This document shows positions 5,001-53,939 of a stretch of 64,000 bases of DNA, piece after piece; within the stretch, counting starts at the first letter, position 1, and every line of letters begins with the position of its first letter. The stretch comes from Rhizophagus irregularis (taxonomy: Eukaryota). Position numbers and translations under genes: made by a program. The notes under the pieces are model-generated. The model worked only from the letters and a program-made list of their open reading frames with translations, was not told the origin of the DNA and searched no databases. Location: assembly GCF_026210795.1 (NCBI RefSeq), contig NC_089429.1, forward strand, positions 3,348,001 to 3,412,000, written 5' to 3'.

Positions 5001-5668
5001 GTTGTCGGGCTGGTAGTGTGTCTCGCTAACGCTCACCCCACCTCGGCCTCACGGCCTCGCAGTACCTCCTTCCCCCTCCATGGGGTAGAGAATTCCCCCA
5101 TATATACTACCGCCATGGCCACAGTGGCCATGGCTGGTCACAGTACTTTCCAACTTCTTTTTTTTACTCCATTTTTTCTTATATATAAAACTACTATGAC
5201 CACTATGACCACTATGACCAGACTACTAAAAAGTGGATAAAAACGCGAATAAAGCCAAAATCAGACAGAATATCCGGTCATAGTACTGGCCACAGTTCAA
5301 AAAACTTATGATAATACTATGGCCACCTTAGTTAGCCCCTCAGGCTCTAAAACCCGATTCAAGCTATGACCACCCTTTATCTACTTACCTGGGACACCGA
5401 ACTATGCCACCGAACTATGACCACCGAACTATGACCGCCGAACTATGACCACCGAACTATGACCGCCGAACTATGACCACCGAACTATGACCACTCTATG
5501 TCCCAAACTATGGCAGCCGAACTATGGACACCTTAGTCAGCCCCTCAGGTTCTAAAATCCGATTCAAGCTATGGACACCTGCCCCTCTATCTCACTCGAA
5601 AAAATATATTCGGCAATTGAAGATTAGGTAACTATAAATTAGTACTCGATTTGATAGAACAAAAAATG
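5001..5668 (+). repeat. Left terminal inverted repeat
   Basis: Near-identical reverse complement of 53071-53939 once the MITE is removed. Contains tandem (ACCACCGAACTATG)n at ~5395-5530 and ends at the ATG at 5666-5668. Confidence 0.95.
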
Positions 5669-6088
5669 ACATATACCGTAGAAAAGTTGGCAGGAATCTT
5701 TAGCCGCACAGTCCCGGATGTTATGGGTATCAATAGGGAGATCCTAAAAAGCCACCAAAATCTGCACGCAGTATCAGTAATCCCCGAACTTGTAGGCCAT
5801 ATCCTGGAACGTATTCCAAGTAGCAATTTTAGACCGCATCTTCTAGAAGTCAGCCCAATCTGGAGAGCCGAAGCTGAACAAGTACTCTGGAAGCGGCATA
5901 AAGAAGCTGAGAAGGTATACAAACAGGCAGTAGACTACTACAGGGAGGCCATTGACAATTTCAATGAAGCCGATCAGAAAAAATACACTAGGTTCGCAGG
6001 AATGGTGGCAGTAGAAAGAGCTCTCCTCAGATGTGACTTTATAACGCAAGAGTCCGACTGGGGAGAAATGGACTCAAATAACGTATAA
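5666..6088 (+). CDS. Small protein with F-box-like motif
   Basis: IPELVGHILERIP...LLEVSPIWR resembles the F-box consensus. The ATG is the last codon of the TIR. Confidence 0.55.
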   Translation: MTYTVEKLAGIFSRTVPDVMGINREILKSHQNLHAVSVIPELVGHILERIPSSNFRPHLLEVSPIWRAEAEQVLWKRHKEAEKVYKQAVDYYREAIDNFNEADQKKYTRFAGMVAVERALLRCDFITQESDWGEMDSNNV

Positions 6089-6200
6089 CATCCAATTGCT
6101 TAAAGAAGGCCGCACTCTTGATGACTCAGACGATGAATCAGATGATGGAGAGGTATCTCTCGATGACTCAGATGATGAGGAATACTTTTAGAAGGCGATA

Positions 6201-6521
6201 CTAATCCGTCTTCCTCTTTTTTGCCTCCTTAAGGCATTTATCAATACACTGTTTACACGCGTCATCAGCCTCTAAAATTTTTTGCCCGAGTTTTTTGCAT
6301 TGCCGATTGTACGCCGTCTGATGTCTTTTAGCTGCGGTTTCTTTTTTCTTCTCCTTGGTTTTCTTTTTGATAACCCAGTCTATCCCAGTAAAAGTATTCT
6401 TATGCATCCCACAAACTACACAGTCACCATGTAAACGATAGCGGCCATTTGTGGTCATATCTTGTATTTCACTAGCAGTCTCGGTTTCCTTCTTACACTT
6501 TAGGCAGTAAAATCGTGTCAT
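6201..6521 (-). CDS. Small basic zinc-ribbon protein (DUF5679-like)
   Basis: MTRFYCLKCK...NGRYRLHGDCVVCG has two CxxC pairs and a Lys-rich tail. Real start is probably the ATG at 6521, because the longer ORF overlaps the integrase antisense. Confidence 0.65.
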   Translation of the reverse strand: MTRFYCLKCKKETETASEIQDMTTNGRYRLHGDCVVCGMHKNTFTGIDWVIKKKTKEKKKETAAKRHQTAYNRQCKKLGQKILEADDACKQCIDKCLKEAKKRKTD

Positions 6522-6565
6522 CTTAAGATTTGAAGTCCGAAATCTTTCCTTTAATTTGTCGTAAT

Positions 6566-7659
6566 ATGTCGCATTTAGAGAATTACTACAAATACTACAA
6601 TCTCTCCAGAGTACCGGCACGAATTCTAAAAGGTGAGGAGCACTACAACCTATATAAAAAGCCCCTAAAAAAGAAGTTATCAGAGCATCCACGAGTAGTT
6701 GTATGGAAACCAAATGCAACACATCAGGCAGATCTTGCAGAGATGCCAGTCGACCCCAAAGGATTCCACTATTTCCTCGTAGTGGTGGAAGTCGCGGGTA
6801 AACAAGTCGATGCAGAACCCCTAAAGGATAAGACTGCAAATAGGGTTCTAAACGTGGTTCGTAAAATCTACAGAAGAAATCGTATTAAGCCACCAACACA
6901 CAGACTGGAGACAGACTCCGGATTAGAATTCACTAACGACCAGGTACGTGATTTTTTCCTGAACAGCCTAAGGGTAATGATGAGGTTCAGGCGAACCAAG
7001 GACGGGACAAAACAGCAATCATCGCTGAACGAGCCATCCAAGCAATCCAGGAACCTCTCCTAAAACGAATGGTGGCGCGGGAGTTGAAGACCGGGGTGAC
7101 GTCCGTGGAATGGTCAGAAGATTTCTGTGATGTAGTTAATAAAATAGATGAAATCTGGCAGAGAAATCCCCCAGACATTCCGACAGGGTCACCCAAAGTG
7201 TCAAAAAAGACGGAACTTCTCTCTGAAGGAACACATGTCCGAGTCAAGTTAGACGAACCTATTTCAGTACTCGGGAATAAACTCCATGGAAAATTTCGTA
7301 CAGGTGACATAAGATGGAATCCCAATATCCGTGTCATCAAAAAAATGATCCTCTCACCTGAACAGCCTCCTACGTATCTTCTTGATGGACCACACGAGCG
7401 TCTAGGTGTATCCAGATGTGCGTACACCCGAAAAGAGTTGCAGATTGTTCCAGAAAATGAACATCCCCCACCTGACTCCGTGATAAGAGGGCAACTCGAA
7501 AGATTTGTACCTGAGCGGATACTCCGGCATCGCATCAGGAAGGGTCAAGACCAGTATCTAGTCAAGTGGGAACGATACCCAGATACCGAAGCCACTTGGG
7601 AACCCGCTGACCGGTTGGAGGAGGATGTCCCTGCCTTAATCCGCAAGTTTTGGAAATAA
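6566..7659 (+). pseudogene. Polinton-type retroviral-like DDE integrase with C-terminal chromodomain (one frameshift at ~6990)
   Basis: HQADL (D), ETDSGLEF (D) and, after the shift, IIAERAIQ (E). Followed by VRVK...W...Y..KELQIV and the chromodomain ERILRHRIRKGQDQYLVKWERYPDTEATWEP. Confidence 0.9.
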
Positions 7660-7673
7660 AAAATAAATATTCC

Positions 7674-8453
7674 CTATTTTTTGTCTCCTCGATTCACATC
7701 AGAAACTATCGGGATAAAAACATTCTTCTCATTACAAGTAAGGGCGATATGTTCACGTGATTCATGGACATCATAATTGTAACGTTTCAGACACGTCCGG
7801 CTCAATCCAATCTCCTTATGCTTGTAATCGCTTAAAACCGCGAGATTCTCAGTGATTACACAATCAGGGGTTAGTTTGATTGACACACCTTTTACCATGC
7901 CGAATGTCCTACCAGAACCCGGAGCGCCAGATATGTTATGTGTAATACTCTTGTCGATATCCAACCCTAATTCTTCAGCGGCTTCCCTCTGAATAAAAGA
8001 CGCGTTAGCACAAGTGTCTGCTAAACACTGAATTGCTATCCCATTGACCTTCCCATCCAGCGCTAAAAGATCTTTAGTATTCTCCAAACGAGCTATGTCA
8101 ATATCCATCGGGTCATCTTCCCTGATATCCTCTTCTTGTTTTTCCTCAACTAGGTCTTCCGGAATCTCCGTACTTTTACGAGCAGACTTTAATTCTTCCC
8201 AAAGAATCTCGCGGAGTAATTTTCTAAAATCTGCAGACCTTAATAAACTTAATGAATCATTTTTGGTGACGGCTTTTATAAGTGTGGGCTTACTACTAGT
8301 AACCTTCACAGGAATCTTAATAGGAGTCATTTTAACTGATTTTTTTGGAACAGATTTAAGAAGTTTCAAGATACTTACACCCTTATCCGAGTTTACTTTT
8401 TTTTGTACTTCGAACCGCACAAATCCGAAAACCACCTTCCTCATCGGGAACAA
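7674..8453 (-). CDS. Retropepsin-like aspartic protease (probably the C-terminal part of a Gag-protease product)
   Basis: GKVNGIAIQCLADTCANASFIQREAAEELGL and IGLSRTCLKRY match the retropepsin pattern, with DTG changed to DTC. Overlaps the upstream ORF at an A8 run. Confidence 0.8.
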   Translation of the reverse strand: MFPMRKVVFGFVRFEVQKKVNSDKGVSILKLLKSVPKKSVKMTPIKIPVKVTSSKPTLIKAVTKNDSLSLLRSADFRKLLREILWEELKSARKSTEIPEDLVEEKQEEDIREDDPMDIDIARLENTKDLLALDGKVNGIAIQCLADTCANASFIQREAAEELGLDIDKSITHNISGAPGSGRTFGMVKGVSIKLTPDCVITENLAVLSDYKHKEIGLSRTCLKRYNYDVHESREHIALTCNEKNVFIPIVSDVNRGDKK

Positions 8454-10582
8454 TTTTCAAGTCATCAAAACTCGCGGTATTAGTATCAATATCCATAGCA
8501 TCATCATTAAGATCAAGGTTTCTCATTGCTCGGGCTAATTCCAGATCATCGCGTCTATCTTTAGCCTTCTGAAGTCTCTTTGGAAATCTTTTAGACGTCT
8601 CATATCCCATAATAAGATCAATAACATGTTGATCATCCTCACTAGTCCACTCAGGAGCATCAGGGTCACCAGGGTCATCACCAAAATTATGATCTACATA
8701 ACCATCATCCCAATCTGGCATCCCTGATGATCCTGAACAACGCGTGGCCGTGGCTTTGGCCGAACAGGTTTAATCTGTTGTCTATAGACCGGTGGTTTAC
8801 GAACTGGCTTAGATGCTTGTAATTGTTTAAATTGTGCCTGGAAATTCTTGGTAAGTTCCTCGGCTTGTGCCTTGAGCAATTCTTGTAATCGTTCTTGAGT
8901 AATAACGTCTGTCGACCTTTGTATTACAGCACCTTCGTGTGGAGTCACGGGATGAGTATAGCCAGCCAATTCCTCTTTTTTAGCCTTTTCAATACCCTGA
9001 CGCCTTTGTAATCCATAGAACATTTCGCCCTTTCATCGCTCAAGATCACTCAATCTATCGATTAATGTATTAAGAGGTGCCGCCCCGATTCTGGAAGCTT
9101 CAATAACGTTTTCTGGCAAAAGTCCTTTATAGAACTGGTCAGTAACCATAATTCGATTATATCCTACAATATCCCCAGCCCTCTCAACTCGCTTGTAGTA
9201 AGATCGAACAGGTTCACCTTGTTCCTGGTAAAGGTTACTAAATCGTATTTGAAGTCTTTCTTCCACGACGGTTGGAAAATTTGTGCGCATATGCATAAAT
9301 GCTTGATCCAGGAGAATCCCCTGTAAGACTATCGGTTGATTCTGGGCAGCAGCATTGAATGGACCTCCATGATCTCCCAACCCATTAACGGGTAGATGAG
9401 TAGGACGTCCGCCCGCACGCCTCCACTGCTCTTCAACTTTAAAATTCGTTCTAACGATATCAGCGCGTGACGGGAAAAATGCGTCTCCAATAGTTACCGC
9501 CGCATTAGCCGCAACTAGAGAATATGCATGAGCAGCAGATCCAGGCACATAAGTATTAGGATGTAGTCGTCCAGCACCAGCATTTTCAGGAACAACCAAA
9601 GCTCTGAATGCTCGGCGAGTAGCACTGGCTCCACCATTTGCAGCAGCTACTAACTGAATATTCGAGAGTTCCCAATTTTTTCCAGTAAGTTCCACATCAA
9701 ACCACCTTGCCGCTTCATTTCTCATACAGCTACGAAGAACCCCCATCGCTCGCACCCGACCAGGAGGCGCACCGGCATCGTCCAATGGATCAATACCAAC
9801 GGTATTAATATACCCTAAAAAGTTATCAATAAAAAGATTAAGATCTTCATCTTCCCGACCATGAAATATGGGGGCAGCTATACCAACGGCAGCCATATCG
9901 TATTTTGTGGATGGTTGAGAGGAGGTGGAGGAAGGTTCAATTGTCTAATCCGAAACCATTGTACTTGGATACGCAGAGCGGCTATTTGTTGAAAAAGTCG
10001 ATTCCTAAGACGTCCCAATGTCTGAATTCCAAAAAGAACCCGATTATTGGCATATACAAGCCAATTTCATGCCGCATCACGCTCGCCTATAGCTCTATTA
10101 CGTTCACCTATAGCTCTATTACGTTCTCCTCTCATAAGATTATATTGCTGCTGAAGACGACGATTAGTCGTCCGCATACCACCAAACTCACGTTCCAATT
10201 CAGCCAAATTAGCTTCTAAACTAGTAATAGTATCTTGTACGTTATTTAGCTCATCTTGTGTAAGACCTAACAAACCCGTTTGAACCTCGAGTTCATCTTG
10301 TAATTCATCACGTTCTTTTCGAGATCGATCACGTTCCGCTTTTAATATATCACGTTCTTCATATGTTTCTCTACAGCGATGAATTAATAAATTAAGAGCA
10401 TGTTTAAGACGATGGTTTGCATTTTGTACATCTCGATTAACAACCATGCGATCACTGACAGTTAAAAAATCTGTTAGATCCTTAATTACCGCAACTAATG
10501 GTATATTATTCATATCACACAAATCCCTAGGAGGCGGTCCAGTAGGCTCTGAAGGAGTATAAATTGCAATTGGTGTCGACAT
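8383..10582 (-). pseudogene. Gag-like polyprotein: N-terminal coiled coil, Ty3/Gypsy-type capsid domain, low-complexity tail
   Basis: PIFHGREDED..FIDNF, AARWF, LYQEQGEPVRSYYKRV (major-homology-region-like) and QFYKGL. Four ORFs join through in-frame TGA stops (10067, 9033) and single frameshifts (~9900, ~8725). Confidence 0.75.
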
Positions 10583-10613
10583 CGTATTTAAACTAAGATA
10601 GAATAAAATTCAA

Positions 10614-11650
10614 ATGGATCTTTATGTATACAATTTGGACGAGTACACAACCGACTCGAGACAGGATAATGAGTTTGCCCCATCATGGCCTTTCCGTCTT
10701 GCCGTAGCAGGAAGTTCTGACTCAGGTAAGACAACTATGATTATTAATTTGTTAATGGGAGACAAGAAGGCAAAGGAGGATGGCGAAAGGTACATATTAT
10801 GTGATGCGGTAATTCTAGTTGGCAGATACCTCGATGAACCGAAGTGGGCAGTCGTACGTGATTTTTCAAAGAAGAAGAAATTCCGTTTACCGCAGTATCC
10901 CATAGTGAGATTCCAAATGTTAAGGACTTCAACTCCACCCAGGCTACTGTGGTAATCTTCGAGGATTTGATGGATGCGCCTAAAAAAACCCAGGATCTCA
11001 TCACTGGATTTTTTACATACGGGCGTCACAAAAATATCTCGTGTATCTATGTGGCCCAAAGATTCTTTACCATTCCCAAGGCTATTCGTGAAAATGTGAA
11101 TTATATTTCCCTACATGGAGGTCACGGAAGTTTGACCGATACTAAGAGGATCATCCGCCAGTATACAGAAGAATCGGAGTTACTAGCTCCAGTAATCGAT
11201 GACCTTACTCTACAACGCGAATTTATAGTATTTGATCTTAGAAGATCCAAGAGCGATCCGTTATCTATTCGGGTTAGATGGGATACTAGTCTCAGTTCGA
11301 TCACCGATCAATCTCAGTTCGATCCTAGTTCGATCTCAGTTCAATCCCCGTTCGATCCGAGTTTGAACCCAGTTCAATCAAAGTTTAGTTCCTATGGCCA
11401 GAAAGCCGTAGCTGAAGCAAAAAAGTCCTCCCAGCTAATCGAGTTTGCTCGGAAATATCCGTCGCCTAAAGAGAGAAAACACCTTCTCGTATCTGGTGTT
11501 ATAGCTAAGAACGCAGATACCTGGATTAAGTACGTCTTTCGGGAAGCCTACGGACTATCTGGTAAGACCTTGGGATCAGACTTCCAAAACTTCTTGCGAA
11601 AGTACGGGATAGGACCACGAAGACTGAAATTCCAAAACCTGAGACCGTAA
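10614..11650 (+). pseudogene. A32/FtsK-HerA-type DNA packaging ATPase (frameshift at T-run ~10865)
   Basis: Walker A AGSSDSGKT, Walker B VIFEDL and the A32 signature GRHKNISCIYVAQRFFTIPKAIRENVNY. Confidence 0.9.
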
Positions 11651-11815
11651 AGGAGTTATTCTCCCGATATGAAGTCCTGAAGTCTAGTCACCCTTTGGAT
11701 AATAAAAAATTAATAGAAGGCATCGGGGTCCTTTTACAGATCTTTTCTAAGGGTCATATGGACCGTCGAGCATTACGAGTAGGGATCAATAGTATTTTGT
11801 AAGAATCTGGCTGCT

Positions 11816-12367: not shown

Positions 12368-12527
12368 GGCTATCTTTCTTTGATTATTCGCTCACTTAGT
12401 ATCCTTCACAATCTTTTTTATATATTGTTATCTTTAAATACCTGTCATTTGTATAAAAAAAAATAACTGGCATTAAGGGATCGACCGTTGAAAAGACCGG
12501 AGGACCGGAGGACCAGAGGACTGACCA

Positions 12528-13112: not shown

Positions 13113-13463
13113 GTCTTTTTTCTGTACGTGTCTACATACCTAATTGTTATCTTCAATTTACAATAACCAAGTGACATCGTCATCAGTCCTTGTCAAGGCA
13201 AATATGGCATAGTAGCCTTTATCTTTATTAAATTTATTCAACGAACTTACAAAAATAAAATAAAATTTTCAAAGTACAAAAAAGAAAAATAAAATTAACT
13301 AAAAACAAAACTATATAGTCTCCAAAACAGTAATAAAGCTATAAAATTAATCTGAAAAAGAAAAATCGCATAAAACTAAAACTATCCTGATCCCCCGCCA
13401 AGATATATTCCAACCTAAGAAGAAGCAACTATGCAAACAAACTAACGAACAATGCGCCCATTA

Positions 13464-14668
13464 TTAAAATCGGCACACCACCCTGCTAAAGCTGTTAGTA
13501 AGTTGCACCGTTAGACGACCCATAAAACCCGAATAGTGATTAAACCAAGGCAAACCATATTTCATCGAGTTCTTTAAATAATCAACGTCGGAGTCACGTG
13601 CGGCGTCGGAAAGGGTCGGAGGAGGTAAAGTTGAGAAAGGTAAGTACGTAGACTTTGGCAAATTTGAAGGCCGAGAAAGTTTGAGTTTATGAGTAATATT
13701 CATCGCGTCTTCCCATTTAGATTTATCATAGGAGCGCGGGAGCCAAATTCGTTTTCTAATCTTTTGGATAAAGTGATTGTGGATAGCAGAGATAACCTTC
13801 ATCGCAGAGTTACGTGGAATAGAAAGTTCTTCAAACAATTTGACAAAGGATTTCGGAAGGCAGCCACGGACAAGGCTATATGAAGTCCAATTTGAAGAAA
13901 AAAAGGACCAACAAGGAAGAGATTTAAATTTGTTAATAATTAAAAAGGGATCTTTCTTAACAAGATCACCAGCTTCTTGAAGTTTGTTGATAAAATGATG
14001 TTGGTAGGAGAGGAGAATCTGTTCCATAGCGATTCGTCTACATTTGCACATAAACAAGTGCATAAAATCTTCCTTGGAGTCGAGGCACGAACGACACAAT
14101 AAGATGTCAATATACAAGTCCGGGCGAATTCTTTTAAGATGTTCCAAGGTAGGCAAATCTTCCAAAAAGAGTTTGAATTTGAAGGTGCGATGAAAGGAAG
14201 CATGAGCACGAGTAAATGAAGCATCATGCTGAGGTTCGGAGTTTAGCAAGAACCAGGTAAGATCCCAATCAATCACGAAATCTGAGATAGAGGATAAAGC
14301 AATGGTAAAGTTAAAACGCGATAAACGCGTTAATCTATGCATCCACAGCATTTGCGAATATTGCTTAAATAGGCGTCGTGGGTTGGATTCGCATAAAATA
14401 TCATCATATTTTAATAAGAAATCGTGAGGAGATACTTGATCCAGATCAGAAAGAAGAATTGCTGAAGAAGAAATATGCGCAGAGTTGGCCAGAGAGTCCG
14501 CGTAGTCATTATAGAAATTACCAGAGTGACCTTTCACTTTAACAGCCGTGACGGATAAAGATTTGGAGGAAATGAGACGTTCAATAATAGCCCAGAGTTC
14601 AAAATTGGTGGTCTTGTAATAAAGCCTGCTATTGGAATAGGAAAAGGTAGCACATAGACGAAGACCAT
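13464..14668 (-). pseudogene. LINE ORF2, 3' part: end of RNase H and C-terminal CCHC zinc motif
   Basis: KVKGHSGNFYNDYADSLA and CRSCLDSKEDFMHLFMC. Removing the CACTA and one CAT restores the frame (SAIDGLRLCATF). Confidence 0.9.
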
Positions 14669-14869
14669 CCCTATAAAAAATATGGATACTGTTAACATAC
14701 GGTATTACCGTATTTTGCGAACAGTATCATTACAGTATCATTAAAGTATTTTAACAGTATTTTCACATACGATATACATTCGGTATTTTGCACACCGTAT
14801 TATATACACGGTATTTTTAAATAGTGAAGATTTGTATACTTTATACTTATATACAGTATTATATCTCGG

Positions 14870-15670
14870 TTTATAACGTATGTGATTATTTGCGAACAGC
14901 ATGGTATTCCAGTTTATAACGTACGTTTTATACTTGTTGTTATTTGCGAACAGTATTATACCTCAGCTTATAACGTATGTTTTATACTGGTGGTTATTTG
15001 CGAACAGCATGATGCCTCAGTTTATAGCGTATGTTTTACACTGGTGGTTATTTGCGAACAGTATTATGCCTCAGTTTATAACGTACGTTTTATACTTGTT
15101 GTTATTTGCGAACAGCATGATGCCTCAGTTTATAACGTACGTTTTATACTTGTTGTTATTTGCGAACAGCATGATGCCTCAGTTTATAGCGTATGTTTTA
15201 TACTTGTTATTATTTGCGAACAGTATTATACTTCAGCTTATAACGTATGTTTTATACTGGTGGTTATTTACGAACAGCATGATGCCTCAGTTTATAGCGT
15301 ATGTTTTATACTTGTTATTATTTGCGAACAGCATGATGCCTCAGTTTATAACGTATGTTTTATACTTGTTGTTATTTGCGAATAACGTATGTTTTACACT
15401 GGTGGTTATTTGCGAACAGCATGATGCCTCAGTTTATAGCGTATGTTTTATACTTGTTATTATTTGCGAACAGTATTATACCTCAGCTTATAACGTATGT
15501 TTCATACTGGTGGTTATTTGCGAACAGCATGATGCCTCAGTTTATAACGTATGTTTTATACTTGTTGTTATTTGCGAATAACGTATGTTTTACACTGGTG
15601 GTTATTTGCGAACAGTATTATGTCTCAGTGTACAACGTATGTTTTATACTGGTGGTTATTTGCTAACAGC
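14870..15670. repeat. 54-bp tandem subterminal repeat array
   Basis: Unit TTATAACGTATGTTTTATACTTGTTGTTATTTGCGAACAGCATGATGCCTCAGT; gives spurious 18-aa-repeat ORFs. Confidence 0.9.
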
Positions 15671-16734
15671 ATAATATACGCATATTTTATCATATTTGCA
15701 AGTATTATTACTACGGTATTTTTATATATAATATTTATATATTTAACATGAAAATTTGTCCTTATAATTATTAAATTTTATTATTAAATTAAAAATACTA
15801 TAATCAGATATAGAAAAGTTAGAAGGTACAATTTTAATAGTGATAAAAAAGATAAAAAAATAAAATTAGTAGTAATAAAAAATTAATAAAAGATGAAATT
15901 AGTAGTAATAAAAAGATGTAGTTAGTAGTAATTAAAGATGAATTAGTAGTAACAAAAGAATGAAATTATTAAAGATTAGATTAGTAGCGATAAAATTAGT
16001 AGCAATAAAAAGGAGATACAATTAGTAGTAATAAAAAGATAAAATTAGTAAAATAAAATTAGTAATGATTAAAAGAAGACAAAACTAGTAGTAATAAAAG
16101 AAAAGGATAAATAAAGACAAAAAAAAGAAAAGAAAATAAATGACTGTACCTACTTTATTAAGTATATAAACATGTCTATATTAGAAAAGTTCAAGAAGTC
16201 AAAATAAATAATTAGTAATAACTGAAAGTTAACCAATATAAAAAACTATTATAACTTCACAATTCTTCTTAAATAATAAAAATAAAACAAATAAATGTAA
16301 TATCTGAAATAATAATAACTTGAGTAAAAAAGCAATGATAAAAAGAAACAAATAAATGTAATATCTGAGATAATAATAACTTGAGTAAAAAAGTAAAAAC
16401 AAAATAAAAGAAAGAGTTTGTATTTTTCAAACTTATATTATTCACGTTACAAAAACAAATGATCTGCAATCATCTATTGGCTAATTTTCACGTGGTAATC
16501 AACACTGATCAGCCAATAATTTTGTTCTTACATTATAGATTTAATTAACCCGGAAAAAGACGGTAAATAGCCTATAGTCCTATACAATAATCTATACAAT
16601 AACCACAAATGTGCATAATTTGATCAGAAATATGATTAAAAAGTTCTAAGTCCGATAATTACGATTGTTAAGATACCGCTCAACTTTAACAGTTTAACTT
16701 TTTAACTGTATAGTTGAAAGCATGATCGATAAAT

Positions 16735-17565
16735 TAAACAATGACAAGAAAAGTTCGCGAATTTTCCTTGGTACTGCTTAATTTTTTTAATTTTTAAGCA
16801 GTATCAAGAAAATTCGCGAACTTTTCTTGTCATTGTTTAATCGATTGCTTTGAAAAAAACAATGGTATACTTTGAACAATCCAAGAAAAGTTCGCGCGAA
16901 TTTTTCTTGCCATTGTTTAATCAATTGCTTTAAAAAAAAAAACAATGGTATACTTTGAATAATAGCAAGAAGAAAAGTTCGAGCGAATTTTTCTTGCCAT
17001 TGTTTAATCGATTGCTTTAAATAAACAATGATATACTTCGAATAATAGCAAGAAAAGTTCGCGCGAATTTTACTTGCTATTGTTTAATCAATTGCTTTAA
17101 AAAAAACAATGGTATGCTTCGAACAATAGCAAGAAAAGTTCGAGCGAATTTTTCTTGCCATTGTTTAATCAATTGCTTTAAAAAAACAATGATATACTTT
17201 GAACAATAGCAAGAAAAGTTCGCGCGAATTTTTCTTGTCATTGTTTAATCGATTGCTTTAAAAAAAAACAATGGTATGCTTCGAACAATAGCAAGAAAAG
17301 TTCGAGAGAATTTTTCTTGCCATTGTTTAATCAATTGCTTTAAAAAAAAACAATGGTATGCTTTGAACAATAGCAAGAAAAGTTCGCGCGAATTTTTCTT
17401 GCCATTGTTTAATCAATTGCTTTAAAAAAAAAATGCTACTTTGAACAATGGCAAGAAAAGTTCGTGCGAACTTTTCTTGCCATTGTTTAATCAATTACTT
17501 TAAAAAAAACAATGATATACTTTGAACAATGGCAAGAAAAGTTCGCGCGAATTTTTCTTGATACC
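16735..17565. repeat. ~81-bp palindrome-containing tandem array 1
   Basis: Unit core AACAATGGCAAGAAAAGTTCGCGCGAATTTTTCTTGCCATTGTT is an inverted repeat. Confidence 0.9.
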
Positions 17566-18148
17566 GCTTAATCTTTAAATTAAAACCTTAGTAAATTACT
17601 TTACAGAAATTTCAGTTAGAGTTACGGTCGATATAAAATCAATGTCGATTCTATATTGATCAGACGTCACCATGATGTCGTGATGAAAATCGATTCGACA
17701 TCTTTAAGTTGAACTTAAATACGTTGATTCGATGTCTATTCGTTTACTAATCGTAGTGATATCGATTCGACATCGAATAACTACGATTAGTAAACGAATA
17801 GACATCGAATAATAACATCGCACTTACATTGTTTCAATATTAAGTTAATGTCGAAAAATGTTTATTTTTCCCGCCTTGTGTACATTAAGTAAACATCGAA
17901 ATGACATCGAACAGGTGTCTATTTGACGTCACACAAACATTATGCGAATCGAGATGACATCGGACGAGCGTTGATTCGACGTCAATCAAACATTCGACAT
18001 CAGGACACGATGGCTTAGTGTATTTTATTCTAAAAGAAATAAAACGAAAAAAAAACCTAAAAGGAAGTTTATTGAGACTTTTTTACTCATTTCATATATA
18101 CCAGCATTGTATGTAATGTGATTTTCATTTATTAATTAAGGTTTAATA

Positions 18149-24358: not shown

Positions 24359-24594
24359 ATTTTTATTTATATCTACAACAAATTTTACAATGTTCGATTC
24401 TAGAATTGAAACAGAAATAAACGTTTATTCTTATTAAAAATTTTATTTAATAATTATAAAAATTATATATATGATTCTACATACTATTTTGGCTTGATGT
24501 TACTTCTTGAACATTCACCTCTTGATGTTGACTTGTTGCTACTTCTTGATCAACTTCTTGATTAACATTCATCATTTGTAAGTAAGAATGTTCG

Positions 24595-38700: not shown

Positions 38701-39213
38701 CCGTAAACTTACGTATGTTTACTCCGTAAATTTACGGACATCGTAACTTACGTAATATTATGCCCGATTAAATTTGCTGATGACTACTTCGAACAATAGC
38801 AAGAAAAGTTCGCGCAATGGTAGATCAAGTAGTAGAATATAAGGATTTTAATATACCGTATCTATTATTCACAGTAAAATACGTTATAAACGTATGATTT
38901 AATATACCGTATCTATAGCAGAAATGAATGATACGTTATAGACGTATGAATTTAATATACCGTATCCATATTTTGCGAACAGTATACAAAATACCGATAT
39001 ACAGTAGAAAGATATTTATACAATATACGTTACAAATGTATGAAATTAAAATACCGTATCATACAGTCTATTCACCGTATACTTTGTTACATTTTTTATT
39101 ATTGGCATTTTGCGAACAGTATACATAATACTGATGTGCAGTATATAAAATTGCGAACAGTATCAAAGATGCGAATATACAGTATATAAACAGTGTGCAT
39201 ATTTTTTATAGGG

Positions 39214-42200: not shown

Positions 42201-43633
42201 AAATCTTTTTCTTTGAAAAGGAGGAGGCCATAAAGGGCACGGGAAATAGTCTTTAAGGATTCTAATAAAGAATTAAAACCGTCTTGCCTACATGTGGTTA
42301 AAGAAGTAGGTAAAATAGGGGGGGAAGGAATAACCTTCTTATAAAGATGAAGAATTTTTTGAAGTCGAATGAAATGAATGGACCAAACATGTTCATATCT
42401 ATTAAAATATGTGGAAGGATATTTGCGCAATAAACGTATCGAATGCAAAAGACGGCTGAGGAAACGATAATGTTGAGTTAAAATTTCCAAATCTTTAGGC
42501 ATCGTAGGTGTGTGTTGATTACCAACCGTGACAGATGGAAGAGAAGCATTAGCAGCTTTCACGATACGGGAATGTAAATATTCACATTGTTGATTGATGT
42601 GCCATGTTGAAAAAGTAGAAGGAAGAACGTCGCAAAGTGAGTCAGTGTGAGTGGAAAAAGATTCCCATTGTTGAGTAGTGACTGAATCAAATTTGAAAAT
42701 GCGGCGAGTTCGACGTTGAAGTTGTTTAGCACGAGCAACCTTGATAGACGCAGCCAAGAGTGAATCATCAAAATACGTGATGACAGGATTGTGATCAGAA
42801 GAGCAAGTATCGTGGGCGTCGAATATGTAGGAAGTGAGAGCAAAGCTTTTTAGCATCGGGCAGGACCAAACATAGTCTATACGAGTAATCTGGTCATCAC
42901 GGTGGAAGGTGCCTAGGGAATCAGAAGCATTAACAGGAATGGTTTCTTCATAACCATGAGATAAAAGATGATGCAACAAACGGTAAGACCGTTGAGAAGC
43001 AACAGAAGGACGGTTAAAATAAATAGGGTAATAAGTATCTAAGTGCATATTAAAATCGCCACAAATGGCGTGATAAAAATTTTGTTGTTTAGTTTGCACT
43101 AACAATTGTAAAAGGAGATCAATAGTTTCAGATCGTAATTTAGAATCGGAAATAGGAGGGATATATATAACAAAAATACGCAATTTGACGTTGCCTTTAA
43201 AATAAAGGTCAACAGATAAAATTCGTGAGGAATGCGAAACAAAATCTTGTACATGAGAAGCAAGGGATTTTTCAATAAAAAGGGAAACGCCACCAGTAGA
43301 TTTGACTTGTTTAGTTTTATCTATGTCAGAGGAAAGGACAGTATAATTAGGAAGGCGTTTGGATAAAAAATGAATTTGTTTGGGGGATAAATGGGTATCT
43401 ACGATACCACCAAAGGAAATATGTTTGAGGTTGAAAAAGTTTGAAATTTGTTCAATTTTAACTTGACTATTATGGCGAAGACCATTAACATTAAAGGAAG
43501 AAATATTAAAAGAATTAGGGATAGGAGAAACATTTAAGGTAGTAAATAAAGATTCATGTGCTGAAAAATTATAAATATCTACAGAGTTGGGGGGGTTTCG
43601 AACGAACGTATCATAATCAAAATTGTCAGTCAT
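39214..43633 (-). pseudogene. LINE ORF2, 5' part: APE endonuclease, reverse transcriptase, start of RNase H
   Basis: SFNVNGL, ICGDFN, RIDYVW, SDHNPV (APE); KAPGPS, QDISKAFDSV, GIDQGEVISPLLW, FMDD, FLGVWF (RT); FYTDGS, TRAEIAA, TDSQSAI (RNase H). One in-frame TAG at 41708. Confidence 0.93.
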
Positions 43634-43680
43634 TAGAACACAATGATAATAATAAACGGGGAGGAGAAATGAGAAATCAG

Positions 43681-45813
43681 TTATTGCGAAGGAGCTGAAG
43701 CTCGATCGGAAGGAGAACCACCAAGAGAAGCGATAAAACCTTGAATGGAACCAGTGAGCGATTGCAAAGTATCTTTAATCGCTTTTTGATCTTGAATAAC
43801 CGAGTTCAATTCGTCATGCGGGGAAGGGGTAGAAGTGGATGTAAGAGTTGAGTGCAGAATATTATTGAGTGTAGATTTGGGGGAAGGGGAATTCTTGACA
43901 CCAGAAGATAAGGGAGCATTAGGATGTGGGATTAAGGTACCAGTAGTTTCAGGAGGGTCTTCTTCCATCCGATCAGGTTCAGAATTGACAACAGGAGCGG
44001 AGGGAGGATGGATGCCTAAATGGGCTTCAATAGCAGATAGCCGTTGATTGTTAAGTTCTAGATTTGAAATGCGGGATTCCACACGAGCAACATCTTGTTG
44101 AAGATTCTCTAAAACATTAAGAATCTTAAGGGCAGCCTCAAGAGCATTAGGAGAATTCGGATCCGGGAGTGGAGCACGAGCATTGGACGAAAAAGAAACA
44201 GATCTATCTTTGCCTTTTCGATTATTGGAAGGCGTACGTCCATGAGCAGTTGAGGAGGAGTTAACTGGACCAGAGGAGGAGGGTTTAGTATTGTTAGAGC
44301 TATTATTATTATTATTAGAGCGGTTAGAGTTTGAATTCAGACGCTGAGCAGAGGCAGAACGATCTCGGGATTTAGAGCGAGAGCAAGACCGAGAAATATT
44401 ACGCGGAGCTCTTTGTTGGGCAGGTCTTTGGACAATGTTGAAGCGTTCTTTAAGGGCGGCAACAGGGTCGCGTGTACGTGAGCGTCCGCGGCGTTGATTG
44501 AGCGGGCAGGAGGTAGGAGCACAACCAAGCTTACCACATCTGTGGCAGAGGGCTTTCGAATCGTTGGAAGTACCCCACCGAAGAGTACGACCTTGGAATC
44601 CAATTGTTTGTTCCATAGCGGCATCCATTGTCTCTTGCGAGTTGAAGGTAACATAAGCCCAAGGCTTGGGTTTATAAGAATTTAGGGAAAGGGGAATGTT
44701 AATAGCTTTTGCTCCATGTTCTTTGACCAAAGGAGCGAGATGGATATCTTTAGTATTAGCGGGAAGTCCAGAGAGAACAGCCACGAACACTCTACGAGCA
44801 GCTTTTTGATCTAAGGAGTAATGGCAAGGGGTAACACGCAAGCAGGTGGAAAAGCAATAAACTGCCTATTGAGTTGTGAAACGGGAGATGGCATCGGCAT
44901 GATCATAGACAATGCGAGCTTGTTGCATCTTAGCACCTTTCCTTGAGTAGAGATGGAGGGCAAGGAGATTGCCAAATTTCTTGAAGTAGGATTGGAGTTG
45001 CGGTTTAGTAATGAAGAACGGTATATCCGTGACTTGGATTGCACGGAGGTCTTCATCAGACCGGAGCTGTTTGGGATCGTACTAGTGGAATTGAAGGTCT
45101 GGAAAGTCGGAGTGTGTGCTTCCAACACACAAGTCACGAGCCTCCGCAGTATGGAAGTGAATGATGAGACGTTTAGCGTCTCCTGAACCAGTCATACGAG
45201 CCCGACCGGTATATGATTCATATGTTTCTAAAAACAAATTGTTAACGGCATCAATGATTGCCTTATTAGTTTTAAGTTTCTCTAGAGTTTGGGGAGTGGA
45301 GTTGGGCGCAGCCGCAGCCAGGAAATCTTGACGATTAATGGTAATGGTAGGGGAGGGATCGACAGCCTGATCGGGCGATGTACCATCATTCACGTCCATA
45401 TTAGGGGACGCGTTAGGGGATGAGTTATTTTCTTTGTTTCGGGGTGCATGAATTGACGCGTTAGTACCAGAAGACGCGTCTTGGCCAGGCGCAGGAGGCG
45501 CAGCAGAATTATTCGGGGTAGAAGCTTGAGTATTTTCTTGAGCGGTGCTGCGGGAATTATTTTGTTGAGGAATAGCGGTCGAAGTTGAACCAACTAAACC
45601 ACCATCAGCCGGCGCGTCGGCAACGAAATCTTCATAGTCTTCATCCATGGAGTCTTTTGTAAGTATACGGGAACGTTTTTGAGAATTATTATCACTATCA
45701 GAACCAGAGTTGTCAGAGAGTTGTTTTTTATTATTTTTCTTTTCTTGACGAGCAGCCTTATTACTATTAGGATTATAGCTGCCGCCACCTCTTCTAGCAA
45801 GGTTTCTAGACAT
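43681..45813 (-). pseudogene. LINE ORF1 (RRM-like, Cys knuckle, coiled coil), two in-frame stops
   Basis: PWAYVTFNSQETMDAA (RNP1-like) and CHRCGKLGCAPTSC. The pieces are in one frame, separated by TAG at 45082 and ~44868. Confidence 0.8.
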
Positions 45814-45954
45814 GTTAGAAGGTATGAGTTGGGTAAAATATAAGAGTTGTTAGTACGAAGATATAAAATTTTCTTTCCGAAAATTTTTGGTTAATAGATC
45901 GGCGGTAAGAGATCTATCATCAGTCCTATCAGTCCTATCATCAGTCCTTGTCAA

Positions 45955-47474: not shown

Positions 47475-47583
47475 GATGTTATGTTACTTATACTATAGCT
47501 ATCTTCAATTACTGTATGCCTATTACACATGGATAAAAAATATAGACTAAATTCGTACAGAATCGTAGGACCACAGGAGCCGC

Positions 47584-48054: not shown

Positions 48055-48136
48055 GATTCTTTGTACTTTGTAAAAAATATAAATCTTCAGTTACCTGTTT
48101 ATTCGAATGAGAAAAAATAAATATGAAACTCGGGGT

Positions 48137-48633: not shown

Positions 48634-48726
48634 TTGGGTATCTTGTAAGATTACATGTTCTATAGGTTTATTCAATTATGCTATCACGGTATGTCGGTAA
48701 AAAATAAACCTACCAGTTCTTAGCAA

Positions 48727-50578
48727 TCATGTCCAGATAACCTTGTTCGCATTTTTCACATGGCAGTATCCCACGGTTTCAAACTTGAAAGTCTTTAGAG
48801 TCGTATCTGCATTCTCTGAACAAGTGAAAAGCGCGGGGCTATCTGGCTGCTCTTCTAAAATAAATCCATCCGTATGGATACGTCGTACTTTATCCTTGTA
48901 TGGTTGAATTGCCTCAGATGTGATTTTGCGACCACGTGCTAATAAGAATGGGGCGATCCTGGGATACTCACCTTTGAAGGGATTACCCGGGTTTGTGAAC
49001 TGGAATCGCCACTGGTCAGATCCTACTGGTATGATAGAGTCGAGTGTATGGCCCTCTGGAAATGTAAATGGGTCTGTTTGATCTGCGGTGAGTGTCTTGT
49101 AATTACGCTTCCTCTGGCATAATGCTCCCCATAATGTGTTGAGGACTCGCTTTGCCACGCGGCCAGCTACGCCACCTTGGTTTTTAATTTTCAAGAGGAA
49201 GTGTACATACTCACCAAATATTACAGTTCCAGGGATTCTTGCTTCTCTATCATATATCAATGCATTTGGCTTCCCATCCTGTATTAACTGTATATTGAGA
49301 CCAAGTTTTTTTGCTCGTTGTAAGTCGATGAATGTATAGATTCCCCTTTTATTCTGTCGGAAGAGAATATTATTCCCACTTACCTTAGCATGGAATAATC
49401 CATACAAGGCATAACCCCTGTGGTCAACAAAGTCATTAAGTGTCTGGAATTTACCCCGTCTGATTGGAAAGTTCGCGTTCGATTGTTGGATACTCGGGTA
49501 TAAACTTGTTGCATCGTACTGTCTTCCATAGCCCTTCCACTCGTTATCTGCCCAGATTAATCCTCCCATCATTGCATCACTTAACCACTCTGCTTCTATC
49601 GGGTCAAGAGGATCATTGGCTGGAATCCCTACACTTAATCGTTCGAATAACCAGAGAGCCGTTCTTTTGTAAGACCAGTTATGGTATGATAAGTCGATTC
49701 CTAAACTGAACTTCTTTGTAGTTTGTAAGAAGATATCCCGCTCCTCGTGGATTTTCTGATATGCTTCTTCAAGAGTTTCATATACTCCAGTCTTACGGTT
49801 TTTCTCGACGGGGATGAAAGAACTCTTGGAATTCTTAGTCTTTTGAAACTGCGCAATTGTGCAAGACTTAACTGTTTTGCCGTTGTATATTGTGACTACA
49901 TTATTGGTCCCATCTTCATAGTATACAATGGGTAAATTACGCTTTCTATCTATTTTACTGGGGTGGAGTCTTCCGGGATTTAACGCGATGGAGTAATGGC
50001 CTTCTGATAGGATGAGAGTCGCACGTCTATCGGACTTACTCTTAGAGATTCGGGTAATGTCCCCCACAATATTAATTGCGAGACTTCCTGCAAGTTGTTC
50101 AACCTTGTCCATGCATGAAACTGGGATGGGAGCATCGCGATTGAGACCTAATGCCTTTTTGATATACTCGGGCTTTTCGATTGACTTTGGCATTTTAGAG
50201 AATGTGCCGTAGATATTTTTCAGGCATTCATACAGGCAATCATTTAGCTTCCCCGTTGCAACCTCCTGCAACCGGTGGGGCATCTACATAAATTATGAAT
50301 CGTTCAAAATAATCAGGGTCTGCGTCATCCGGTAGTTGTGCTTCGTCGTAATGATCCAAGAGTGAGAAAAGGCTAGCTGGTTGGTTTCCTGATGTCCAAC
50401 CACCGGGTTTCCAGTTTTCATAGGGAAGTAAAATCTGGAATTTACAATTTGGATATTGGGATTGGAGTCGCTGACCGAGTCTTGCTATTGCTCCTCTGGA
50501 AAAGCGGACGCCAGAAAACTGGAGTTCCTTGATGTCAGGTCGTGTTGGTAAGGCGCGTGCAATTTTTGAATGAGTCAT
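48727..50578 (-). pseudogene. Compact protein-primed-type family B DNA polymerase (frameshift at G-run ~50252)
   Basis: MMGG...YDATSLYPS (motif A), AKRVLNTLWGAL (motif B), RIHTDGF (motif C variant). The upstream ORF joins as GGCNG-KLNDCLYECL. Confidence 0.85.
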
Positions 50579-51164
50579 TTGATATACTATGAATTGTATT
50601 CAATTGTAATATAGCTTTTCTTTATAATAAGTGTAGGATAATTTAGGACAAAAAAATATAAGATAATTACACGTCACTTATCTTATTAAATGGAGTCAAT
50701 CATATCACAGACCTCATCAAAATACTCATCATCAAACTCGTCGATGATTCCATTGGCAGCTTCCCATTCACGTTCCATATTAGTCTTTGGACGTTCCTCG
50801 GGGATCTCTCGCGCTTTACCCTTATCTGCCCTCATAGTTTCATAACCAGAGGGGTGGGAATAATTTCGGCATTACGATTATCCTTGTATACTCTTATTAA
50901 ATCCGCGAGTTCTTTACGGCTAGGTGTTTTAGGTAAGTATCCATTATATTCAATCCAGTCCTTGAAACGGTCTACTACTTCCCTAAGGTAGTACTGGTAC
51001 TCGTCCTCAATACGCGTTGTGGGACATTCCTCTACTTCAAACGCGAGTATTTCCCAGTCATAGTCATCTGACGCATCTTGATACTTGGCCCATAATTCCT
51101 TACCTGTATTGTAGAGTTCATTGAAGACCTGGTCTTTTGAATTTTTAACCCACGGTTTGCGATC

Positions 51165-53073
51165 CTATCGGTGTCTTTCATGACAAGCCCAGTGCGCTCG
51201 AGTGCCTTCCTTTGGTTCAGGATTCCGGTCGACTTCTGGTTCTGTGTCGGGTTCTGGGATAAGTTGCTCTTCGGGAGCCGGTTCTGGGTCAGGCTTAGTG
51301 ACAGATGCAGAAGATTCTGCGGGAGACTCGGATTGTTGTTCAGGAGTTGGGTCCATGGTTGTAGAATCCGAGTCTGATAATAAGTCATCTAAGATGTCAT
51401 AGTTATCTGGCTCGGGGGCAGACGGTTTTTCAGGAACTGGGTTTGCGGTTGTAGAATCCGAGTCTGATAACAAGTCGTCTAAGACGTCGTAGTTATCTGG
51501 CTCAGGGGTAGACGGTTTTTCTTCCCTTGACTCTTGTGGGCGTTTTTTTAAGTGATCAGGCTTGGGTGGAAGCGGTGGAGGAGTCTTGCGAATTACAGGT
51601 GCAGGTTTTTCCTCGACAGGTTCGGGTTTTTTCTCGGCGGGTTTCTCGGCAACTAACTCTACTTCCTCTACTGGTGCTTTTTGTACGTCTTGTACATCTT
51701 GGATTACTTTACTAAAATTCTCCGTGATTTTTGCTTTATCTAGTATGTAATAGTTTATTCGGGCACCTGAACGTCTTGGGCGGGTTTTAGGAATGAATTG
51801 TTTAATCTCCATGCCAAACTTATTATCACTAAGTGTTTTGTTTTCGCCCTTCTCACTGCACCAATTCTGATAAGTGCTATAGAAATTTGTACACGAGATT
51901 TCAAGTGTGTCGCAATTGTCGGGCCACATCATTTCAAGGTAATATTGTATAAAACGCTGGGGATTTGGGATACTTGCTTCAATTAACTCCCGTTTCATTT
52001 GAGTATCAGGAATAGATCGGGGATTGAAGCTAGTTAAGTCTCGGCTAAGTAGATAGGACATGAAGGAACTGGCTGTATCCGGATTTTCTAATACTTTTAC
52101 GAGAGAACCGAAGTATTCTCTATTGCCTTTATATTTGGCTGAAACATTGAGAGCTACAAATCTTTCATCTCCCATTTCTATGCGGATTGGCATAGCATGA
52201 TTACTGAGGATCATGTAGCCAGCAAAGTCATCAATAACCTTTACATCTATCCCCTTTTCCTCAATAGAGATGTAAGACTCGGTGATTAAACTCTTGAGTC
52301 GGTTGTTTGCCGTGCCGTTCCTTGCCTGACATATCGCATTCATTGAGGATAATAAGTTTTTTGGCACGAACAGCCGCATTGAACCTTCCCATTACATCTT
52401 CAAGACGGGTAGTGGAGAGGAAGTTTTCACGGCCGAGAATACGTTCTCCGATAAAATCGGTTAAGATATTCTTACCACATCTGGGGGGACTGCGCATGAT
52501 AATTGCTGTACCGGGTTTTTTGTCTGGATTTTGAATTAGAAATGCGAGCCAGTTGAGGATGTATATGGTTAATTGCTTGTCCTCTGCACACCATACCTCA
52601 TGAACGTGTCGGATGATTGGATTAACTAGATTTGGTTTAATGCGCTCAGCGGGTTGGGCCCTGAAACCTAGGAAGAGATTGAAGAATTCAGGATTATACT
52701 TTGGTGCGTTTGGGGGATAAGGCATGAAGTTTACATCTGTATAACAGATCTTTGCGATTGAAGCTTGGAGAAGAAGATCCTTTAATTTTGTGGATGTGGT
52801 CGCGTCACTGTCTTCTCCGGTATCTGACCGAATAATTACCTTGTGCTTAGTAGAAATCCCCTTGAGATCTGCGGTGAACTCGAAGTATATGCTTCCATTG
52901 TAAGCCTTCTTTTTTCTAATCCACATGCTAAATTTTGTGGTGATGAAAGCCACAGAAGCCGAGATTGCTGAATTGACGCTTTCTTTCGTGTGTGTACCTA
53001 CACATTTTTTAAGAAGGTCATCGTAGAAGAAACGGTTGTTAGGGTTAAAGATTGCTGGAACTTGAGCGGCCAT
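51165..53073 (-). pseudogene. D5-like/SF3 helicase with winged-helix C-terminus and acidic Pro-rich tail (frameshift ~52312)
   Basis: FFNLFLGF, YILNWLAFLIQNP, SPPRCGKN (Walker A), LIILNE (Walker B), LKSLITE...MILSNH (motif C), FYSTYQNWC...SDNKFG. No primase domain is visible. Confidence 0.88.
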
Positions 53074-53939
53074 TTTTTGTTCTATCAAATCGAGTACTAA
53101 TTTATAGTTACCTAATCTTCAATTGCCGAATATATTTTTTCGAGTGAGATAGAGGGGCAGGTGTCCATAGCTTGAATCGGGTTTTAGAGTCTGAGGGGCT
53201 GACTAAGGTGTCCATAGTTCGGCTGCCATAGTTTGGGACATAGAGCGGTCATAGTTCGGTGGCTATAGCTCGGTGGCATGGTTCGCTGGCCAATGGGCGG
53301 CGGTCATAGTTCGGTGGTCATAGTTCGGTGGCATAGTTCGGTGTCCCAGGTAAGTAGATAAAGGGTGGTCATAGCTTGAATCAGGTTTTGGAGCCTGAGG
53401 GGCTAACTAAGGTGGCCATAGTATTATCATAAGTTTTTTGAACTGCGGCCAGTACTATGACCGGATATTCTGTCTGATTTTGGCTTTATTCGCGTTTTTA
53501 TCCACTTTTTAGTAGTCTGGTCATAGTGGTCATAGTGGTCATAGTAGTTTTATATATAAGAAAAAATGGAGTAAAAAAAAGAAGTTGGAAAGTACTGTGA
53601 CCAGCCATGGCCACTGTGGCCATGGCGGTAGTATATATCACAGGTCGAAATGCTAAAAATCGGCAAAAAAAATGGCGCGAAAAGCAGTGGCTATTTTTGG
53701 CTATTTTTGGCTATTTTTGGCTGTTTTTGGCTATTTACGAATTAACCTATACTATTTGTAAATAGTTTATACAAATTTGCGAATAGTTTATGCGATTTGC
53801 GCCATTTTTTTTGCCTATTTTTGATCATTTGACGTGTGTATGGAGAATTCTCTACCCCATGGAGGGGGGAAGGAGGTACTGCGAGGCCGTGAGGCCGAGG
53901 TGGGGTGAGCGTAGCGAGACACACTACCAGCCCGACGAC
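53071..53939 (-). repeat. Right terminal inverted repeat (contains a 200-bp MITE)
   Basis: Reverse complement of 5001-5668. Ends at the helicase ATG (53073-53071). Confidence 0.95.
53639..53838. mobile_element. 200-bp MITE (CACA termini, CMC-like) in the right TIR
   Basis: ~40-bp imperfect TIR CACAGGTCGAAATG...AAAAAAAATGGCGC; TSD TAT; absent from the left TIR. Confidence 0.9.

Follow-up and report, generated by a model that had tools for sequence, protein, structure and literature searches.

A conserved upstream motif in a fungal Polinton-like element

The genes of a decayed Polinton-like element in the arbuscular mycorrhizal (AM) fungus Rhizophagus irregularis are headed by a conserved upstream core, A[AT][TC]T[GA]AA.A. 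The element, about 16 kb long, lies as two arms split by a 33-kb nest of other insertions within the 64,000 nucleotides of contig NC_089429.1 (positions 3,348,001 to 3,412,000) that we analysed and refer to as the window. We consider it probable, at roughly 65% and on sequence evidence, that this core serves as an early-type promoter for the RNA polymerase of a giant DNA virus infecting the fungus, and that the element would be helper-dependent.

A profile search with the DNA polymerase of the element brought together 37 metagenomic loci, and from these and the window we curated 50 gene starts. Starts without a motif site were kept, while internal ATGs of truncated or frameshifted open reading frames (ORFs), near-duplicate loci (L006, L007, L023), host-like ORFs (L027, L032, L037) and three distant loci (L034-L036) were left out. 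Outside the module of ATPase, Gag, integrase and DUF5679 genes there were 42 starts, or 31 after dereplication, which were compared with 1000 dinucleotide shuffles over the interval -60 to -18 before the ATG. AATTGAA was found in 13 of the 31 starts (shuffle mean 0.42, maximum 3; opposite strand 0), A[AT][TC]TGAA in 20, at 18-60 nt before the ATG (shuffles 1.06; opposite strand 0), and the relaxed form A[AT]TT[GA]AA in 24 (shuffles 3.62; opposite strand 1); the top unbiased 6- and 7-mers among the starts were AATTGAA and T-runs. When the window and the five loci nearest to it were taken out, the same three patterns were found in 5/19 starts (0.3 shuffled), 9/19 (0.76) and 16/19 (3.2). Polymerase orthologs, some of them close relatives, carry a site at -26 to -30 in 11/11 starts, with a TGAA core in nine and a TAAA core in two. 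The three excluded distant loci, with 25-29% identical polymerases, have very AT-rich starts with another pattern, CTTAAAG followed by ATAT runs.

Among 29 aligned sites the core has a G in 20 and an A as second base in 20, while base +8 is A in 26 and base -1 is T in 17. By density alone, AT-rich host-like DNA is not poor in the motif, and arbitrary ATGs have the core at motif distance in 2.3-3.0% of cases in each compartment of the window; it is position that distinguishes the element genes. Non-element ORF starts, including those of a long interspersed nuclear element (LINE) and a CACTA-like transposon, have a TGAA core between -60 and -18 in 0/14 cases and the TAAA form in 2/14. Motif and spacing persist among relatives whose flanking intergenic DNA can no longer be aligned and whose proteins are 33-60% identical. 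A preliminary description of the window had named absence of enrichment or of positional conservation as a result that would speak against a giant-virus-type promoter; instead, the motif is enriched on the coding strand only and keeps its position in relatives. Chance in AT-rich DNA is ruled out by the shuffles, the distant-locus counts and a held-out scan, in which a matrix built from 21 distant-locus sites placed 10 of 12 window gene starts within the top 11 of 27,954 arm positions. Because its training sites had been anchored by the pattern, this matrix does not amount to an independent discovery of the core, but the window was held out.

Seven motif strings lying 18-41 nt before an ATG had been reported earlier, and all were found where they had been placed and on the same strands, with 41, 41, 36, 26, 28, 35 and 18 nt between motif end and ATG for the sites at 5615, 53124, 13149, 47501, 48083, 48669 and 50597. 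The first two belong to the two copies of a terminal inverted repeat (TIR), so that six of the seven count as independent. On both strands of the 64 kb there are four exact copies of AATTGAAGAT, all of them preceding an element gene, and ten matches to AATTGAA[GT]A, six in the arms, all before genes, and four in AT-rich non-element DNA. The TIR copies of AATTGAAGAT lie at 5615..5624 (+), 51 nt from motif start to the ATG at 5666 (scan rank 5), and at 53115..53124 (-), before the D5-like helicase gene (rank 4), whose ortholog in L002 has AATTGAAC 30 nt ahead of its start. The other two precede an F-box-like gene (47501..47510, -, at -36, rank 1) and a 194-aa gene (13149..13158, -, at -46, rank 3, about 40 nt inside a LINE junction). 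A second form, AATTGAATA, stands at -27 before the protein-primed-type family B DNA polymerase (pPolB; 50597..50605, -), at the position shared by polymerase starts, and at -44 before a broken 164-aa-type gene (48669..48677, -, rank 2), as also in L004. AACTGAAGAT precedes a 156-aa gene (48083..48092, -, at -38, rank 6) and has a T6 run at +15..+20, right ahead of the predicted initiator. A relaxed site, ATTTAAAGAT, precedes a 183-aa gene (12430..12439, -, at -72, rank 9), and its orthologs in L008, an 11-kb metagenomic contig, and in L011 have a TAAA-core site upstream too. The starts of this 183-200-aa gene carry a TAAA and not a TGAA core in the 3/3 loci scored.

The motif had further been said to be missing before Gag, ATPase and integrase. 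This is true of the strict string, but relaxed sites do precede the ATPase, the Gag region and the integrase. ATTTGAAT lies before the coiled-coil ORF at the head of the Gag cluster (10608..10615, -, at -33, rank 7), ATTTAAAC before the A32-like ATPase (10586..10593, +, at -28, rank 10), a weak ATTTGAAG before the integrase (6528..6535, +, at -38, rank 58) and AATTAAAG before DUF5679 (at -35, rank 78). Another AATTGAAC (9935..9942, -, rank 8) falls within what remains of the coiled-coil ORF, 46 nt upstream of the ATG (9896) of the Gag capsid; it may be a chance product of coding sequence, and L008 has no AATTGAAC at the equivalent place. The sites before structural and integration genes are weak or missing in the L008 orthologs, and the order of ranks differs there, with DUF5679 6th, integrase 18th, the Gag cluster 25th and ATPase 62nd among 21,984 positions. 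Two temporal gene classes, as proposed earlier, are not established by these data: relaxed sites also precede structural and integration genes, and eight starts of two elements make a weak case. The split between TGAA and TAAA cores is a second lead on gene classes. Two gene pairs, DUF5679/integrase and coiled-coil-Gag/ATPase, diverge from gaps of 44 and 31 nt (6522-6565 and 10583-10613) with back-to-back motif variants in each, an arrangement kept in L008 (32 and 55 nt).

Predicted initiator and poly-T gene ends

Downstream of the motif, an A stands at +25 in 25/29 aligned sites. A Kozak effect behind this base was ruled out, as the A persists in 18/20 of the sites whose ATG is at least 34 nt away. 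Of these 20 sites, 13 have TA at +24 and 10 have it at +20, a result that 0/5000 permutations reached. At the other end of the genes, T[AT]T6 occurs within 70 nt after 27/49 stops, where base shuffles give 1.36 and the reverse strand 2, and T6 after 31/49 stops (4.6 in shuffles, 6 on the reverse strand), while AATAAA is at background (4 vs 4.9). In the window, the Gag-protease stop is followed by terminator-like TATTTATTTTTTATT (7655..7669, -), an exact match to the pacmanvirus motif WWTTTATTTTTTAWW, and the pPolB stop by the T-run TTTATTTTTT (48699..48708, -). Downstream of the integrase, which converges on Gag-protease, the + strand has a TAT6 run (7675-7682), and similar T-runs lie at about 50650-50656, 48112-48121, 47535-47540 and 12455-12463. 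In four cases from two gene families, T6 falls between a motif and its ATG, always at +15..+20 and directly before the predicted start, as expected if the run ends the upstream transcript without entering the next. From their sequence and spacing, the motif, TA and T-run may be read as promoter, initiator and terminator, and the TA initiator and poly-T ends strengthen the case for a giant-virus RNA polymerase.

Which polymerase reads the motif

Each gene is arranged in the order core motif, TA 20 or 24 nt after the motif start as the predicted initiator, a short leader, an ORF that looks intron-free, and T(A/T)T6 as the predicted terminator. Under the giant-virus reading, the element would integrate in the nucleus and stay silent there as long as only host polymerase II is at hand, until a helper from the Nucleocytoviricota supplies the polymerase and an early initiation factor, giving virophage-style expression and replication. 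Transcription by such a polymerase had already been proposed in the preliminary description; motif enrichment, the TA initiator and the poly-T ends support it, and the use of the polymerase itself is what we infer from them. The same description saw a resemblance to the mimivirus early promoter, and the AATTGAA/TGAA core is indeed shared, but the octamer AAAATTGA is present in 0/31 starts and in neither arm. In text, the motif is closest to the asfarvirus core AAAATTGAAT.

Our best candidate for the helper lineage would be an asfarvirus-related virus endogenized in R. irregularis. This lineage is favoured because of its co-occurrence in the host, not because of the motif. In the available portions of the published account, one R. 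irregularis strain has an asfarvirus-related insertion of 1.5 Mb that encodes both large RNA polymerase subunits and a capping enzyme, and related polB genes occur in all five strains studied (PMC10640383). Its supplement, in the portions available, gives protein alignments with no match to early transcription factors, and the account contains no promoter analysis. Similar signals are described across the Nucleocytoviricota (PMC5294985, available portions). A mimivirus-specific or asfarvirus-specific assignment from the motif alone was rejected; the grammar is not specific to asfarviruses. In the IMG/VR contig L069, tandem genes at 1093-2536 are each headed by AAAAATTGAAG and closed by TTTATTTTTTA, with a grammar as in the fungal element, and G001, behind L069, gave no match to RNA polymerase or to the capsid of nucleocytoplasmic large DNA viruses. 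Scanning IMG/VR for the combined terminator and promoter pattern returned at least 120 stretches; an ORF start lies 18-60 nt after the motif in 5 of the 120 listed, so most of these matches are due to chance. TTTATTTTTTA was not enriched in the giant-virus bin G003 (50 vs 54 in the control).

Several points weigh against the giant-virus reading. The gene starts were curated by hand after their upstream sequences had been seen, which may have introduced bias. The 49 stops include near-duplicates and related loci, some of the T-runs are part of the next promoter, and the exact pacmanvirus 3' motif follows just 1/49 of them; T-rich tracts also mark the 3' ends of fungal polymerase II transcripts. 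Upstream of the element genes there is no 5' A-run of the kind that known giant-virus early promoters have, and the promoters that the motif matches are published ones of distant viruses. Since the promoter and T-run grammar is shared by IMG/VR contigs (L069, L079) whose affinity is different or unknown, asfarviruses are not singled out by it. Four RNA-labelled runs with the same species label gave 59-89 reads on the right arm out of about 11 million per run, of which 86-95% align only in part, and none of the listed records that contain the right arm is labelled as RNA. These sparse reads form no pile of starts at any site and map no transcript start or end; their scarcity agrees with silence but is a weak sign of it, because there is no host-gene control, the copy is decayed and host silencing would look the same. 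Finally, the core is a TATA-box-like TAAA in 9/29 sites, and the chromodomain of the integrase points to a nuclear stage with the host polymerase within reach.

These last two points also speak for a host polymerase II core promoter, whether a TATA-like box (here TTAAA) about 25 nt before the start or the site of a host factor, with the element transcribed in the nucleus as an ordinary transposon on escape from silencing. TATA boxes lie 25-30 nt before the start, a spacing similar to that of the motif. It would also fit such a promoter that Maverick copies in this fungus are described, in the available portions of one study, as recently expanded and in many cases weakly methylated (bioRxiv 2021.03.30.436303). 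We nevertheless find a host promoter rather unlikely, as the TGAA core is missing from the non-element starts, AATAAA is not enriched after stops and there are hardly any full-length RNA reads on the right arm. In addition, the majority core has a G, and TG is a hallmark of Nucleocytoviricota early promoters and makes a poor site for the TATA-binding protein. Our literature search returned nothing relevant on host core promoters or poly(A) signals.

The main alternative helper is a cytoplasmic linear plasmid, a pGKL2-type virus-like element (VLE) whose reduced poxvirus-like RNA polymerase would read the motif. Yeast VLEs such as pGKL1 on pGKL2 are, like our element, fungal and linear with TIRs, pPolB, a short upstream motif and, as is proposed for our element, a virus-type polymerase provided in trans. 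Their promoters, ATNTGA at 20-40 nt before the ATG, are akin to poxviral early promoters (PMC6211774, available portions), and the ATTTGA variants of the element fit this pattern, but its commonest form, AATTGA, does not, leaving a minority of ATTTGA/ATCTGA sites that do. Unlike the fungal element, yeast VLEs also lack an integrase, ATPase and capsid, have a plasmid as helper and terminate transcription at stem-loops (PMC6211774). VLEs are present in Mucoromycota (PMC13348850), but the main text of that paper, in its available portions, does not mention Glomeromycota or Rhizophagus, while a giant-virus insertion is documented in R. irregularis itself. We therefore hold a plasmid helper to be unlikely.

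It is less likely still that the motif is the binding site of a regulator encoded by the element, for instance the 183/200-aa protein with its predicted D5-type winged helix, which would recruit the host polymerase. This gene is conserved in L008 and L011, and, as no more than a lead, the 200-aa ortholog has Pox_D5 C-terminal domains as its nearest Atlas clusters (score 0.87). Such a regulator would leave the fixed initiator spacing, the poly-T ends and the likeness to viral promoters unexplained, and the motif also stands ahead of the regulator gene itself and of the earliest-acting genes. That the signals are a nonfunctional relic of a helper-dependent ancestor, with the element now spreading otherwise, agrees with the broken genes of the window copy and its near absence from RNA reads but is highly improbable, as motif and spacing outlast the diverged flanking DNA, which implies selection during the spread of the family.

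Returning to a giant-virus polymerase as the reader of the motif, one may picture, tentatively and with more doubt than confidence, a newly built kind of virophage in fungi, namely a Polinton-like element with Gag-protease in place of the jelly roll and many copies in mycorrhizal genomes, woken by asfarvirus-like early machinery and possibly serving as an inducible antiviral defence. If the giant-virus reading is true, virophage-like dependence would extend to fungi, and giant DNA viruses would infect AM fungi often enough to sustain the spread of a parasite family. It would also allow a test of whether Polintons are autonomous or depend on a helper, a question still open: from the motif one would expect a particular promoter in the helper, transcript ends at positions given to within a few bases, and no expression in cultures free of virus. 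With the matrix, early genes of the helper could be sought in AM fungal genomes.

Comparison with known systems

Published systems are compared here as described in the available portions of each source. The preliminary description had cited mavirus as sharing promoter motifs with its helper. The sharing holds and has been taken as a reactivation switch for mavirus and the EMALEs of Cafeteria, but the motif in question is the late TCTA motif of CroV (PMC8547959). Mavirus and EMALEs resemble the fungal element in being integrated and TIR-flanked, with pPolB and an rve integrase, but differ in their jelly-roll capsids, cysteine protease and protist host (PMC8547959).

Better precedents for an early motif are Gezel-14T/PgVV and the transpoviron of pacmanvirus. 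Gezel-14T/PgVV of Phaeocystis globosa, which depends on PgV-14T, is like the fungal element Polinton-like with an early-type promoter motif; its DNA polymerase and other genes are monocistronic under the helper's early AAAATTGA-type promoter (bioRxiv 2022.07.28.501842). It has an algal host, a mesomimivirus helper, a double jelly-roll capsid, a tyrosine recombinase and TVpol, where the fungal element has Gag, an rve integrase and pPolB. The motif is found at only five of its genes, and helper dependence has been shown there, whereas it is proposed here. Pacmanvirus lostcity has the early motif AAAATTGA and the 3' motif WWTTTATTTTTTAWW and shares its promoter with its own transpoviron (PMC11788076). 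This virus, of the extended Asfarviridae, shows an AATTGA early core and a TTTATTTTTTA-type 3' motif as in the fungal element, but the transpoviron is episomal in amoebae and, unlike the fungal element, has no polymerase, integrase, ATPase or capsid.

In asfarviruses, 15-16 nt separate the early core (cEPM) AAAATTGAAT from a TA initiator downstream (PMC8906413), and terminators are poly-T runs (PMC7163114). African swine fever virus shares with the fungal element the AATTGAA core, a TA at about the same distance and T-runs at gene ends. Its TA maps to +22/+23, whereas that of the fungal element peaks at +20/21 and +24/25, it encodes its own polymerase, which the fungal element does not, and the conserved +8 A sets the fungal motif apart.

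Fungal Mavericks are already known. Maverick-Polintons with the same core genes have been reported as present and recently expanded in the same host group, Glomus/Rhizophagus, and the available portions of these accounts cover presence, ATPase phylogeny, expansion and methylation, with nothing on promoters, helper or Gag. Our literature search, with subscription papers and bioRxiv supplements outside its scope, found no account of promoters, helper dependence or Gag in fungal Mavericks.

A Gag capsid in place of the jelly roll

As judged from its homologs and a predicted structure, the capsid of the element is a retrotransposon Gag and not a jelly roll. Retrotrans_gag (PF03732) matches 23/63 homologs of the protein in the capsid slot, and the Gag homologs number 147 clusters. 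An earlier model built from close copies reached a pLDDT of only 31, and a second model one of 91. In a structural search with the second model, retroviral, Ty3, Arc and PEG10 capsids took ranks 1-36, the best match having a Z of 9.8 and a root-mean-square deviation of 5.8 over 164 residues; Foldseek gave nothing at E<=0.001, though retroviral capsids headed its list. No double jelly-roll major capsid protein or cysteine protease was found in the window or in the syntenic L008, where, the coiled-coil ORF excepted, the remaining unassigned element ORFs encode just 60-200 aa. The swap of a jelly roll for Gag is surprising in its own right. For lack of a jelly-roll capsid, the element falls outside the classical Polintons, and it is at most a candidate virophage.

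The Gag capsid model has a beta-rich insert at about residues 70-190. Gag and its aspartic protease (window 7674-9896, -; L008 7215-9423) stand beside the A32 ATPase and pPolB. The coiled-coil ORF and Gag are read in different frames and overlap where the former ends and the latter has its ATG; the junction, GATATGGCTG, is identical in the window (9880-9900, -) and in L008 (7210-7230), which suggests translational coupling or frameshifting. In one relative, P0227, coiled-coil and Gag are within a single annotated protein.

Identity and layout of the element

The arms, at about 5.0-13.2 kb and 46-53.9 kb of the window, are GC-richer. L008 has the gene order of the window element at 33-70% protein identity, and this order is collinear with both arms, which shows the arms to be one element and rules out two separate half-elements. 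Hallmarks of a Maverick/Polinton are present, namely long TIRs, pPolB, an rve integrase and an A32-like ATPase. The ends are inverted repeats, with none of the long terminal repeats of a Ty3/Gypsy retrotransposon, and the only reverse transcriptase in the window belongs to the nested LINE; none was found in L008, where nine ORFs were scanned besides the polymerase and two Gag pieces. No RNA polymerase family of Pfam was found among the element ORFs, and no catalytic motif of this enzyme in the six frames of the arms. Relatives were not found in viral_contigs (polymerase and ATPase queries) or genome_contigs.

The left TIR (5001..5668, +) carries a promoter site and extends to the first ATG; its arms 5029-5076, 5100-5461 and 5463-5668 are 96-100% complementary to the right end. 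The promoter copy of the right TIR (53071..53939, -) heads the broken D5-like primase-helicase gene (50680..53073, -, 3' end approximate; PF19263, PF03288). Next comes pPolB (48727..50578, -; PF03175), with a frameshift near 50250; it is 97% identical to annotated R. irregularis proteins, has many further copies, and its L008 ortholog aligns over both pieces. The left arm holds the DUF5679 gene (6201..6521, -; PF18930), divergent from the frameshifted integrase with its C-terminal chromodomain (6566..7659, +; PF00665, PF00385; 53-70% identical to the L008 ortholog). These are followed by the broken Gag-protease gene (7674..9896, -; PF03732 homologs, PF13650), the broken coiled-coil ORF (9880..10582, -) and the frameshifted A32-like packaging ATPase (10614..11790, +; PF04665). 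The 183-aa gene (11816-12367, -; 3549-4151 in L008) encodes a protein of 183-200 aa that is conserved and carries an N-terminal CxxC. In the window copy most of the long genes are broken, and the arms also encode several small proteins, F-box-like ones among them.

The nested insertion outside the element (13200..45950, -) has RVT_1, Exo_endo_phos and Transposase_21 matches. It is a LINE (39206-45813 and 13464-14351), itself divided by an AT-rich stretch of about 25 kb that contains a CACTA-like transposase and arrays of 81-bp palindromic repeats. The LINE insertion point lies about 40 nt upstream of the motif at 13158, and the repeat TTGACAAGGACTGAT occurs at both LINE junctions (13196 and 45954) and once more at 46664. 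At 5001 and 53939 the element ends in GTYGTCGGGCTGGTAGTG; A-runs flank it on both sides, with a possible 5-bp target duplication, and the whole is located within a host tandem repeat array of about 130-bp units.

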